A stretch of 64,000 nt of DNA from an uncultured Prevotellaceae bacterium (GCA_937877605.1 CALFJA010000086.1:4384-68383), one strand, 5' to 3'; shown: positions 55,852 through 58,236, numbered from the stretch's first letter. Numbers and translations: made by a program. The notes: a model not told the origin generated them from the letters alone.

Positions 55852-57042
55852 ATGGCTAACCAAACACTCACTGCAGCAAAGAATGCAAAGAAAGACGAGT
55901 TCTATACGCAGTTAAACGACATTGAAAACGAGTTGAAACACTATCGTGAGCACTTTCACAACAAGGTGGTATTGTGCAACTGCGATGATCCCTACGAATC
56001 GAATTTCTTCAAGTATTTTGCGCTCAACTTCAATCAACTGGGGCTGAAGAAACTGATTTGTACCTGCTACGACGGTTCACCCGTACAGGGAACGGAACTG
56101 AACCTGTTTGCCATCGACACTGAAAGTGAAGAGGAACACAGAGTTGCCTACAAGGTGGAAATTTCGGAAGTAACCGATGTGAACGGCGATGGTGCTATTG
56201 ATCTTACCGATGTTCAATATTTACTGCAGAACGACAAGAATCTGCTCACACTCTTGAAAGGCAATGGCGATTTCCGTTCGCAAGAATGTACAGACTTGTT
56301 ACAACAGGCCGACATCGTCTGCACCAATCCACCGTTTTCCCTATTCCGCGAATATGTGGCACAACTGATGAAATATGACAAGTTTTTTTTAATCATAGGA
56401 CCACTTAATGCCATAACATACAAAGAGATATTCCCTCTTATTATGCAAAATAAATTATGGTTAGGATATGGATTTAAAGCAGGGAATGCATTTTTCAAAA
56501 TACCGAAAACGGAACAAAACACATACGCTGAGGGTGTTTTCAATAAAATAACAGGATTAGTAAAATTCAGAAATTGTACATGGTACACCAATCTCGATCA
56601 CCAAAAGCGCCACGAAGAGTTAATTCTTTACAAACACTATACTCCTGAAGAATACCCACGCTACGATAATTACAACGCCATCAATGTGGATAAAGTACAA
56701 GATATTCCTTGTGATTACGATGGCGTGATGGGCGTGCCGATTACCTTTCTGGATAAATACAATCCAGAACAATTTGTCATTATCAATGCCAATGACTTCA
56801 GAAACGCTGAAAATGTACCCGTTAAAGCACACGGATTGATAAAAGACAAAGAGGCCTCCATTACTGAATCCCTAGAGAGAGAGAGAGAGAGAGAGAGAGA
56901 GAGAGAGTACGCATCACTTATGCACGCATCTGCATCAGGAAGAAACAATGAATTGCTTGCGCCTGGAGCAGATGGATGGCATATCAATGGAAAGCGCAAA
57001 TATGCTCGTATCTTCATACGACATAAGAATACCAGGATATGA
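55852..57042 (+). CDS. N6-adenine DNA methyltransferase, EcoRI-methylase-like family, carrying an internal (AG)17 tract
   Basis: KKDEFYTQLNDIENEL N-terminus, catalytic TNPPFS, and GVMGVPITFLDKYNPEQF. The tail is ...INGKRKYARIFIRHKNTRI. Confidence 0.85.
   Translation: MANQTLTAAKNAKKDEFYTQLNDIENELKHYREHFHNKVVLCNCDDPYESNFFKYFALNFNQLGLKKLICTCYDGSPVQGTELNLFAIDTESEEEHRVAYKVEISEVTDVNGDGAIDLTDVQYLLQNDKNLLTLLKGNGDFRSQECTDLLQQADIVCTNPPFSLFREYVAQLMKYDKFFLIIGPLNAITYKEIFPLIMQNKLWLGYGFKAGNAFFKIPKTEQNTYAEGVFNKITGLVKFRNCTWYTNLDHQKRHEELILYKHYTPEEYPRYDNYNAINVDKVQDIPCDYDGVMGVPITFLDKYNPEQFVIINANDFRNAENVPVKAHGLIKDKEASITESLEREREREREREYASLMHASASGRNNELLAPGADGWHINGKRKYARIFIRHKNTRI
56874..56907. repeat. (AG)17 dinucleotide microsatellite inside the methyltransferase CDS
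   Basis: 34 nt of uninterrupted AG, translated as alternating Glu-Arg (ERERERERERE). A T8 run also lies in the same CDS at 56383-56390. Confidence 0.97.
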
Positions 57043-57114
57043 CAAATACGACCGGCCATATCTAAAGGGCAAGAGAATGTACATGAGATTATTTATTGCT
57101 AAAAGAGATAAACA

Positions 57115-58236
57115 ATGAAAATAGAACTAAAGAAAGTAACTGTTGCAGAACTGACTGCAGGCTACGAAGATAACGAAGAAGCTGGTGTGCGTGGATATGG
57201 AGGACTGCTCGATATCCGACCACCTTACCAACGAGAGTTTATCTATGATGAAAAGAAACGCAATGCTGTGATTACCACCGTATTGAATGGCTTTCCACTA
57301 AATGTGATGTATTGGGCTGCAAGAGACAAAGATGCCGAGGTCCCATACGAAGTAATGGACGGACAGCAACGAACCATCAGCCTATGCCAGTATGTAAACG
57401 GCGACTTCGCCTATGATTTTCAATACTTTCATAATCTGACAGAGGTTGACAAGCGAAAGATTTTGGATTATGAATTGATGGTATATGTATGTTCAGGTAA
57501 TGACAAAGAAAAACTGAAATGGTTTGAAACCATTAACATCGCAGGCGAGCGACTCACCCGTCAAGAACTGCGTAATGCAGTGTATGCAGGTCCGTTCGTA
57601 AGCGATGCCAAGCGTTATTTCTCCAAGTCGAACTGCGCTGCCTACAACATGGGACACCATTTGTTGTCAGGCTCACCCATACGGCAAGACTATTTAGAAA
57701 CAGCCTTAAAATGGATGGCAAACTCCCTGAACAAGCCAAGTACCCCGATGAACATAGAAACCTATATGGCACAACACCAACATGATCCTAATGCGTCGCA
57801 GTTATGGCAATATTTCAATGCGGTGATAACATGGGTATTTGCCACTTTCGATGTAGGGAAACGCAAAAAAATCATGAAAGGCGTGGACTGGGGGACACTG
57901 TATGACCGGTTCCATGGTACCGTACTCGACAAAAGTTCACTTGATGCTGAAATAGGACGACTGGTTATTGACTCTGAAGTGCAGACTAAAATGGGTATCT
58001 GCCCCTTTGTCCTCACACGCGACGAGCACTATCTCGGTCTGCGTGCTTTCCCGGAAGACATTAAACTGGCAATCTATGAAAAGCAACAAGGAATCTGTCC
58101 GCTATGCGGCGAACATTTTGAAATAGATCAAATGGAAGGCGATCACATCACACCTTGGGCAGAGGGAGGCCGTACCGTAGAAGATAACTGCCAGATGCTC
58201 TGCCGCGACTGCAACCGCAGAAAAGGAAAGAAATAA
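57115..58236 (+). CDS. DUF262 (ParB/GmrSD N-terminal-like) domain protein with a C-terminal HNH nuclease motif
   Basis: DIRPPYQREFIY and MDGQQRTISL (the DGQQR signature of DUF262). C-terminal CPLCGEHFEIDQMEGDHITPWAEGGRTVEDNCQMLCRDCNRRKGKK is an HNH motif. Confidence 0.85.
   Translation: MKIELKKVTVAELTAGYEDNEEAGVRGYGGLLDIRPPYQREFIYDEKKRNAVITTVLNGFPLNVMYWAARDKDAEVPYEVMDGQQRTISLCQYVNGDFAYDFQYFHNLTEVDKRKILDYELMVYVCSGNDKEKLKWFETINIAGERLTRQELRNAVYAGPFVSDAKRYFSKSNCAAYNMGHHLLSGSPIRQDYLETALKWMANSLNKPSTPMNIETYMAQHQHDPNASQLWQYFNAVITWVFATFDVGKRKKIMKGVDWGTLYDRFHGTVLDKSSLDAEIGRLVIDSEVQTKMGICPFVLTRDEHYLGLRAFPEDIKLAIYEKQQGICPLCGEHFEIDQMEGDHITPWAEGGRTVEDNCQMLCRDCNRRKGKK

Follow-up and report, generated by a model that had tools for sequence, protein, structure and literature searches.

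What can a restriction-modification (R-M) system gain from a hypermutable repeat in its methylase gene, and how does it survive one? Phase-variable methylases are textbook ON/OFF switches, which are safe only where restriction depends on the methylase. The question is raised by a 64,000-nucleotide (nt) stretch of DNA from an uncultured Prevotellaceae bacterium (GCA_937877605.1, CALFJA010000086.1:4384-68383), referred to below as the window, in which an EcoRI-family methylase gene with an (AG)17 tract late in its coding sequence (CDS) is followed by a separate nuclease gene. A first-pass annotation of this DNA had proposed that the methylase gene tolerates frameshifts, any repeat length still delivering the same terminal strand. 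Here, we find that all three frames past the tract close with the C-terminal motif of the family, that repeat number varies among near-identical contigs, and that each tail is under purifying selection in its own frame only. At the level of sequence, a never-OFF three-frame architecture is very likely. The fuller reading, that of a repeat-driven, three-state, never-OFF C-terminal phase switch in a Type II-like R-M methylase, is the one that we consider probable. In a system of this type, where loss of the methylase should be lethal, such a switch would be a sequence-encoded answer with three ON states.

One tract and three endings

The methylase matches Pfam PF13651 (EcoRI_methylase) over positions 2-345 of the 345-position profile (E 5e-145; 483.5 bits versus a cut-off of 26.4) and is typed MTase_II by PADLOC (E 7.5e-121). 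Its catalytic (D/N)PP(Y/F) motif IV reads TNPPFS at residues 158-163, with NPPF beginning at residue 159; this segment, D15-Q20 (DEFYTQ) and C42-P47 (CNCDDP) are invariant across 69 homologues. Profile, motif IV and N-terminal elements together identify the protein as a putative N6-adenine methylase of PF13651; NCBIfam holds no named family for it. The reference copy of M.EcoRI, whose gene adjoins that of R.EcoRI on E. coli plasmid pU90-3, is 49% identical to the window methylase (residues 2-311).

That Y-x-R is a terminal element of the family, as the first-pass annotation had supposed, is clear from alignments of the homologues and from the way in which M.EcoRI ends. Among the 69 homologues, Tyr384 and Arg386 never vary, and conservation of Gly380 and Ile389 is 90% or higher; the same holds in 83. 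The C-terminus of M.EcoRI (...NGKCPYFRILIKNKRLQK, closing with ...KFRKGVDEKDLSINGKCPYFRILIKNKRLQK) is of the same motif class as the tails in the window. The two methylases thus have the NPPF motif and a terminal ...NGKCPYFRILIK ending in common, but M.EcoRI has no repeat and one tail only, whereas the window gene has the tract and three tails. They differ also in partner: R.EcoRI, a PD-(D/E)xK enzyme, is encoded upstream of M.EcoRI, whereas the DUF262-HNH nuclease of the window is encoded downstream.

The tract is the sole dinucleotide run of at least 5 units in the 64-kb window. It is uninterrupted, begins at codon 341 of 396, lies within the CDS about 15 codons ahead of the end of the shortest isoform, and has a unit that is not a multiple of three. 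Re-translation placed the tract, the three tails, their stops and the overlap with the nuclease gene exactly where they had been annotated, and (AG)n does read as alternating Glu-Arg whatever its length. Every frame past the tract terminates in Y-x-R-[ILVM]-x-[ILV]. Tail A, the shortest closing module, stops at 56949-56951, 163 nt from the nuclease ATG. The present frame (n=17) reads ...YASLMHASASGRNNELLAPGADGWHINGKRKYARIFIRHKNTRI and stops at 57040-57042, so that the ending of frame B, ...PGADGWHINGKRKYARIFIRHKNTRI, lies 72 nt before that ATG. With one AG unit gained, the gene runs on for 69 more codons, reading stop-free across tails A and B before it enters tail C; it ends ...KYDRPYLKGKRMYMRLFIAKRDKQ, with a TGA at 57116-57118 that overlaps the nuclease ATG (57115-57117) as ATGA, a 4-nt overlap. 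The tails are 15, 44 and ~70 residues long in the order A, B, C, and the annotated stop-to-start spacings (163 nt, 72 nt, overlap) are borne out.

Such an arrangement is not expected by chance. Among 200,000 shuffles of 56908-57118, a stop-free path to the motif was present in one frame in 1,460, in two frames in 2, and in all three frames in none; the three-frame pattern is therefore not a chance one. The isoform A construct spans PF13651 end to end (486 bits), as does isoform B (483 bits).

Replication slippage alters the number of AG units and thereby shifts the ribosome among three frames. Behind the tract, three nested closing modules follow in the order A, B, C, one per frame, each closing with the family-invariant Tyr-x-Arg-hydrophobic-x-hydrophobic strand and then basic residues. 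With a module in every frame, the gene therefore encodes a full-length methylase whatever the repeat length. The three states differ in the cassette beside the terminal strand and in the position of the stop relative to the nuclease ATG; methylation, hence self-protection, would persist in all of them. The states may not be wholly separate. In E. coli, a Mycoplasma bovis mod gene undergoes low-level frameshift suppression on (AG)n (bioRxiv 10.64898/2026.04.01.715767), and some co-production of isoforms by such suppression may occur. Structure downstream of the tract, of the kind associated with programmed ribosomal frameshifting, is not significant (z = -1.77).

Table 1. Coordinates of the methylase-nuclease locus in the window
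Feature	Position	Strand	Remark
EcoRI-family N6-adenine DNA methyltransferase CDS (predicted)	55852..57042	+	present phase n=17, 396 aa, isoform B
(AG)17 slippage tract	56874..56907	+	encodes (Glu-Arg)n in any phase
Tail A: RVRITYARICIRKKQ + stop	56904..56951	+	read at n mod 3 = 1 (e.g. n=16)
Tail B module: ELLAPGADGWHINGKRKYARIFIRHKNTRI + stop	56950..57042	+	read at n mod 3 = 2 (present n=17)
Tail C module: RIPGYDKYDRPYLKGKRMYMRLFIAKRDKQ + stop	57026..57118	+	read at n mod 3 = 0 (e.g. n=18)
DUF262 (GmrSD_N, DGQQR NTPase-like) + HNH nuclease	57115..58236	+	Pfam PF03235 + PF01844
T8 run within methylase (codons Lys-Phe-Phe-Leu)	56383..56390	+	incidental, outside switch

Repeat number, conservation and selection

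Does the tract vary in nature? The window and contig L001 have 9,185 nt in common with no mismatch, and the one gap between them, of 6 nt, is the tract itself (n=17 versus n=14). Within a group of near-identical gut contigs, n is 6, 7, 7, 8 and 9, which puts the gene in frames B, C, C, A and B, respectively; a second near-identical group includes four contigs with n = 6.5, in frame C, as well as n = 8.5, in frame B. Over all AG loci, the consensus assemblies stand in frame A in 3, in frame B in 8 and in frame C in ~8 lineage-samples, and the nuclease gene is intact at every AG locus where it is visible. Polymorphism of the tract among related strains and metagenomes, on which the idea of slippage hangs, is thus found in assembled contigs, with all three frames populated. 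An assembly artefact can be ruled out, as the architecture is present in >30 independent assemblies. With an in-CDS repeat of variable length among near-identical sequences, the window locus is a case of repeat-mediated phase variation. It lacks the out-of-phase truncation of the classical ON/OFF kind, each phase encoding a complete family C-terminus. In one contig of the n = 6-9 group (L093 4540-4760), a deletion has fused tail C onto the beginning of tail B (…ELLAPGADGWHINGNVNMQEYSWYYDMVARP…YRRMFI), and two endings remain.

The layout is also conserved over much larger distances. More than 20 independent loci (44-99% protein identity) retain nested A, B and C tails. Seven AG-tract lineages (60-99% protein identity, n = 7.5-17), located through metagenome proteins called in each of the three frames, have the motif in every frame, always ordered A, B, C. 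Scanning metagenome contigs for the DNA pattern brought in 12 further loci with the three-frame layout, and more are found on viral contigs. The open frames and the motif are thus kept in every related AG-tract lineage examined, as would be expected if the earlier proposal were correct.

Evidence that each frame is read comes from the pattern of substitution. We first pooled the ratio of nonsynonymous to synonymous differences (pN/pS) over peptide-anchored segments. Read in their own frames, tails A, B and C give 0.11, 0.13 and 0.20, respectively, versus 0.8-5.7 in the other frames. Because anchoring on a conserved peptide could bias the test, we also aligned the whole tail at the nucleotide level with MAFFT and ran an unanchored sliding window along it. 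Low pN/pS then falls in frame A at 56908-56945 (0.05), in B at 56944-57030 (0.11-0.24) and in C at 57034-57118 (0.23-0.25). Taking both tests together, tail A has a pN/pS of 0.05-0.11 in its own frame (others 1.5-2.9), tail B of 0.11-0.24 in frame B (others 1.1-6), and tail C of 0.20-0.25 in frame C (others 0.8-5.9). In a second lineage group, which has different cassettes, own-frame values are 0.18 and 0.12. Stops are present in the unused frames, and frames B and C are open where read-through is needed. The lineages compared are 68-76% identical in nucleotide sequence, with synonymous sites near saturation (pS 0.7-0.9).

Such frame-specific purifying selection implies that all three frames are translated in nature, or were until recently, which agrees with the earlier claim that each frame is actually read. 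Conservation, selection and contigs in three frames together lend strong support to the idea of frameshift tolerance, with a terminal strand at every repeat length. The region is a clear natural example of triple-frame coding: over ~210 nt, selection passes from one frame to the next, and stops are avoided in the frames that are read through.

Could the gene be an ordinary ON/OFF methylase all the same, with one active frame, the other motifs being fossils or products of chance? A few observations do weigh against a three-state switch. When the n=12-21 isoforms were looked up among 15 billion proteins, n=14 and n=17 alone were found, both in frame B, so the exact strain is on record in that frame only. 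AlphaFold is unsure of the long tail: the model of isoform B, the window protein, has a mean predicted local distance difference test (pLDDT) score of 65.6, falling below 50 in the tail, with ~56 for the terminal strand. For isoform C, the best stretch of PF13651 ends at profile position 328 of 345. The record of the strain and the uncertain long tail would suit an ON/OFF gene. However, chance is excluded by the shuffles (0 of 200,000); fossils would show neither purifying selection specific to a frame nor stop-free read-through at 68-76% nucleotide identity; and consensus assemblies stand in all three frames beside intact nuclease genes. The ON/OFF reading, to which we give hardly any credence, is already largely refuted by the comparative data.

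The first-pass annotation described the design for a single gene, and in this it was right but understated the case, for the design recurs across the family. At least seven repeat types are found just before the terminal strand, at the same position as (AG)n. They include G7 in Porphyromonadaceae (L038), G8 in Alistipes (L032, motif in two frames only), G10 in Pseudoflavonifractor (L081) and (AG)12 in Eubacterium (L068); (GAACA)n (L018), a 14-nt unit in 4 copies (L031) and (GACA)11-26 (L080, L075, L020) in the genome set; and (CAGAG)10 (L139) and (AAGAG)9 (L157) on viral contigs. Most loci with repeats of these other types have tails in three frames, each ending Y-x-R-I-x-I, and multi-frame tails are present at ~10 of 80 species-representative loci. 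Where the repeat is (GACA)n or (CAGAG)n, longer tails hold an extra whole copy of GVPITFLDKYNPEQFEI (the second or third) plus a new cassette. The design recurs in gut, rumen and bioreactor communities, among Bacteroidales and Clostridia as well as on (pro)phage contigs. Having arisen repeatedly, it is probably a common source, so far overlooked, of differences in restriction or methylation between microbiome cells. The (GACA)n tracts lie at 4066-4153 in L020, 4003-4046 in L080 and 4002-4105 in L075, and encode (Asp-Arg-Gln-Thr)n. L020 has the terminal motif in 2 of 3 frames, the third stopping after 6 codons, and may be a partly decayed or a two-state switch.

It is also conceivable that the extra tails make the gene proof against frameshifts without any adaptive switching. 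On the premise that a frameshift beside an active nuclease would be lethal, repeats might settle in a tolerant loop and leftover 3′ ends of old cassettes rescue the shifted frames, all states being equivalent. In favor of this idea, cassette replacement is frequent in the family, and loci without a long repeat, L041 and L042 among them, have leftover out-of-frame tails and frozen long isoforms; that of L041 has a linker made of former tails read out of frame. The position of the repeat would fit as well. In the AlphaFold model of isoform A (P0032, mean pLDDT 75.9), the Glu-Arg repeat is a hairpin tip between strands 336-340 and 348-352, predicted with low confidence (pLDDT 58), just before the terminal strand at residues 356-361 (pLDDT ~85). 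Yet breaking up the repeat by one point mutation would be a far easier escape from the hazard, and pure tracts (6-17 AG units, up to 26 GACA units) persist despite near-saturated synonymous sites. That at least seven repeat types have arisen at one position points instead to selection for mutability. We regard proofing without a switch as improbable. Under a switch, the hypervariable end of the EcoRI-methylase family becomes explicable: loss of the repeat would freeze one cassette, sometimes with fossil out-of-frame linkers.

Cassettes, nuclease coupling and the possible output of the proposed switch

If the gene is a three-state switch, what does it switch? The tails are more than alternative routes to the terminal strand. 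Tail A closes the native hairpin of type A, which relatives without a repeat have as HGLIKDKEG-INGKPTYARILI, and tails B and C carry hairpins native to other relatives, SPGGDGWHINGKKKYARIFI and KYDRPYLNGKRMYPRIFI, respectively. The cassette of tail B is the native ending of the repeat-free P0041, P0049 and P0062, and that of tail C the native ending of P0028, P0037, P0056 and L063. Of the earlier description, in which each frame supplies the same strand on a different linker, the strand stands; the linker does not, as tails B and C each hold a distinct, conserved hairpin cassette. Throughout the family, cassettes fall into discrete types that are conserved within type across phyla and swapped faster than the rest of the gene, the pattern expected of a functional module. 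For example, L062 and L090 have methylase cores that are 96% identical and cassettes that are unrelated. Another variable stretch of the methylase, at ~residues 205-240, shows no link with cassette type within the Bacteroidales subfamily. The cassette of M.EcoRI (KFRKGVDEKDLSINGKCPYFRILIKNK; L164, pU90-3 1486-2466) is ~89% identical to type D of rumen and gut loci (L014, L025, L053), and the remainder of the protein only ~49% identical, which would fit cassettes that either travel as modules or are under unusual constraint.

Altered properties of the methylase isoforms are accordingly a serious alternative, or addition, to any effect on the nuclease. The selected output would be the C-terminal cassette, the moved stop being a by-product, and the three isoforms could differ in kinetics, in the partners that they bind, in an extended or altered recognition of the target, or in resistance to an inhibitor encoded by phages. 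Much of the comparative evidence is consistent with this. Tails B and C exceed the minimal strand, being conserved hairpin cassettes under purifying selection; the three cassettes differ in type in every lineage, and each type is native to repeat-free relatives; tails at (GACA)n and (CAGAG)n loci add a new cassette along with the extra GVPITFLDKYNPEQFEI copy; and cassettes are discrete, conserved within type and exchanged faster than the remainder of the gene. Moreover, L010 and L092 retain the switch without an adjoining nuclease gene. On the other hand, nucleases that are 93-96% identical, with scattered differences, are paired with methylases of unrelated cassettes; provided that the nuclease recognizes its site by itself, protective specificity cannot then be set by the cassette. 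All three isoforms of the AG lineage retain the first half of the type A cassette. That B and C are conserved may also have a structural reason, in that a linker of such length has to bring a first hairpin strand with it. On balance, we find it rather unlikely that the cassette is what is selected.

Structural comparison was of limited help here. The AlphaFold models of isoforms A and B did not yield the position of the cassette relative to the active site; a Foldseek search against the PDB returned generic Rossmann methyltransferases and E1 enzymes only (best KsgA, E 6.7e-4), and a sequence search of the PDB gave no relative. In three rabbit-gut Clostridia metagenome-assembled genomes (L044, L057, L088), the nucleases are 95-96% identical and the methylases differ at almost every residue of a variable block at ~195-245, and in the cassette too; methylase alleles appear to have been swapped beside a constant nuclease.

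A more radical possibility is that target recognition lies in the cassette, the nuclease being directed or licensed by the methylase or by the methylation pattern, as in Type III systems or SspE. This is conceivable because a nuclease with a DUF262 NTPase-like domain might not read sequence itself. If true, one slippage event would re-programme modification and restriction together among three specificities, with no unprotected OFF state, and both the pairing of near-identical nucleases with unrelated cassettes and the nature of the cassettes, which are discrete, uniform within type and horizontally exchanged, would be explained. We consider such a specificity switch unlikely.

Under the three-state switch that we favor, the likeliest selected output would instead be cell-to-cell variation of the restriction arm, and coupling to the nuclease gene is a plausible, if tentative, candidate for its main route. 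The stop/start overlap that is usual in the family returns in the longest frame alone, where ribosomes could pass straight into the nuclease gene. Frames A and B would uncouple the two genes, and the overlap in frame C would shift the restriction-to-modification balance. The nuclease (PADLOC REase_II PDLC03418, E 1.2e-121, positions 1-371 of 372) lies immediately 3′ of the methylase at nearly all of ~150 family loci, and the pair, as separate, adjacent and co-oriented genes, has the gene organization of a Type II R-M system. Among 86 single-tail loci, the methylase stop overlaps the nuclease start in 38 and falls 0-14 nt before it in 28 (66 of 86). At multi-tail loci, the longest frame usually ends -35 to +16 nt from the nuclease start, and the other frames 39-363 nt from it. 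The DUF262/GmrSD_N plus HNH architecture is known from the nucleoside triphosphate (NTP)-stimulated enzymes GmrSD, BrxU and SspE (PMC12707154), and orthodox Type II behavior is therefore not assured. In NCBIfam, the nuclease has only sub-threshold HNH matches, to Cas9d and IscB.

Several findings count against coupling as the main output. RNA folding leaves the AUG of the nuclease gene unpaired, within a leader rich in A, and the tail region has neither significant structure (z = -1.35, -1.77) nor a terminator; the nuclease may thus initiate alone. At L007, the longest frame still ends 56 nt short of the nuclease. L010, where the nuclease gene is upstream, has a pure tract and three tails without adjacency, and L092 has kept both although its nuclease gene is ~770 nt away, behind two inserted open reading frames (ORFs). 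A repeat within the nuclease gene itself would be a simpler way to vary restriction. The earlier suggestion that slippage tunes translational coupling of the nuclease therefore has a circumstantial standing, with the overlap norm of the family on its side and the unsequestered AUG, L010 and L092 on the other.

Two details of the junction may be added. The insert in L092 (oriented 452-1067) comprises ORFs of 85 and 124 aa that resemble a toxin-antitoxin pair. In Firmicutes loci (L044, L057, L075, L080, L088 and others), a Shine-Dalgarno sequence for the nuclease (AGGAGG or GGAGGAG) lies within 15 nt before its start and is made by the Arg-Arg codons that follow the terminal strand of the last tail; in these loci, two constraints thus act on the basic residues behind Y-x-R-I-x-I.

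Known systems and the setting of the gene pair

How does this locus compare with switches already described? The most familiar are the phase-variable methylases with simple repeats (Type III mod genes, phasevarions), such as M.MmyCI of Mycoplasma mycoides with (AG)12 (PMC3498834; survey PMC5909438). Like them, the window gene is an N6-adenine R-M methylase with a hypermutable in-CDS repeat, here likewise of AG units, and a length that differs among close relatives. Their repeat, however, is early or central, two of three phases truncate the protein (OFF), and restriction needs Mod; in the window, the repeat is late, all three phases are complete, and the nuclease is a separate protein.

The nearest published concept is C-terminal phase variation, described in Helicobacter canadensis by Snyder et al. 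2010 (PMC2823697) and in Neisseria gonorrhoeae (PMC5320596). A repeat near the 3′ end there changes the C-terminus without stopping expression, and the window locus, with its tract late in the CDS, belongs to this general class. The described cases differ in that their tracts are homopolymeric (poly-G), their tails are unrelated and of few to ~20 residues, and they come without a re-encoded element, evidence of selection in the alternative frames, or a link to a downstream gene. Full-text literature searches returned no case of a conserved terminal element re-encoded in three frames, nor of such behavior in the EcoRI-methylase family.

Variation of Type I specificity subunits is a third comparison: the poly-G tract of NgoAV hsdS (PMC9577141), the repeats surveyed in hsdS and hsdM (PMC7383803), and the invertible hsdS of Streptococcus pneumoniae (PMC11709252). 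These too are multi-state switches in which a module is exchanged and the enzyme stays active. They work by HsdS truncation or by site-specific inversion between separate cassettes, not through three overlapping frames, and their change of specificity has been demonstrated, whereas at the window locus such a change is hypothetical. Finally, gene overlap and translational coupling are established in Type II systems (review PMC12707154; C/R overlap PMC2997769). Stop/start overlaps of methylase and nuclease genes (ATGA; -1, -4, -11 nt) are likewise the norm in the family of the window, but none of the described pairs uses a slippage tract to move the upstream stop into and out of the overlap.

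There is a practical consequence for annotation as well. Gene callers give differing protein lengths for what is one gene, and loci of this kind may end up labelled as frameshifted pseudogenes.

The T8 run in the methylase gene, which had been named as a second possible slippage site, is one of three T8 runs in the window. It was rejected as a designed site: it is present only in the window and L001 and interrupted in six related lineages, the relatives carrying AAGAAGTTC there.

Upstream of the methylase, the interval 55560-55800 contains a terminator-like hairpin (55759-55789) as well as two long inverted repeats, CGGATGCAG…CTGCATCCG and ACAAAACCG…CGGTTTTGT; Rfam has no match over 55250-57200. 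Neither Rfam nor the folding and terminator searches gave any sign of RNA-based control, and a scan of the tail with a model that does not cover Bacteroidetes promoters showed no sigma-70-like promoter. The genomic context of the R-M pair varies, from a TonB receptor and dnaA at L003 to a kpsF-like gene and the atp operon in the window, and the pair therefore behaves as a mobile island. Among IMG/VR viral contigs (L103-L163) there are 61 relatives of the methylase, several of them with repeats and multi-frame tails, so the R-M system may be carried on prophages or phages.

Within the methylase, an EF-hand/dockerin-like loop, EVTDVNGDGAIDLTDVQYLLQNDKN (window 56152-56250, residues ~101-133), lies between the S-adenosylmethionine-binding and catalytic motifs. 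D109, G114, L118 and D120 of this loop are invariant in the 69 homologues, it has a weak match to the EF-hands of calcium vector protein, and the insert is missing from M.EcoRI. A putative calcium-binding-type loop is unexpected within a DNA methylase.

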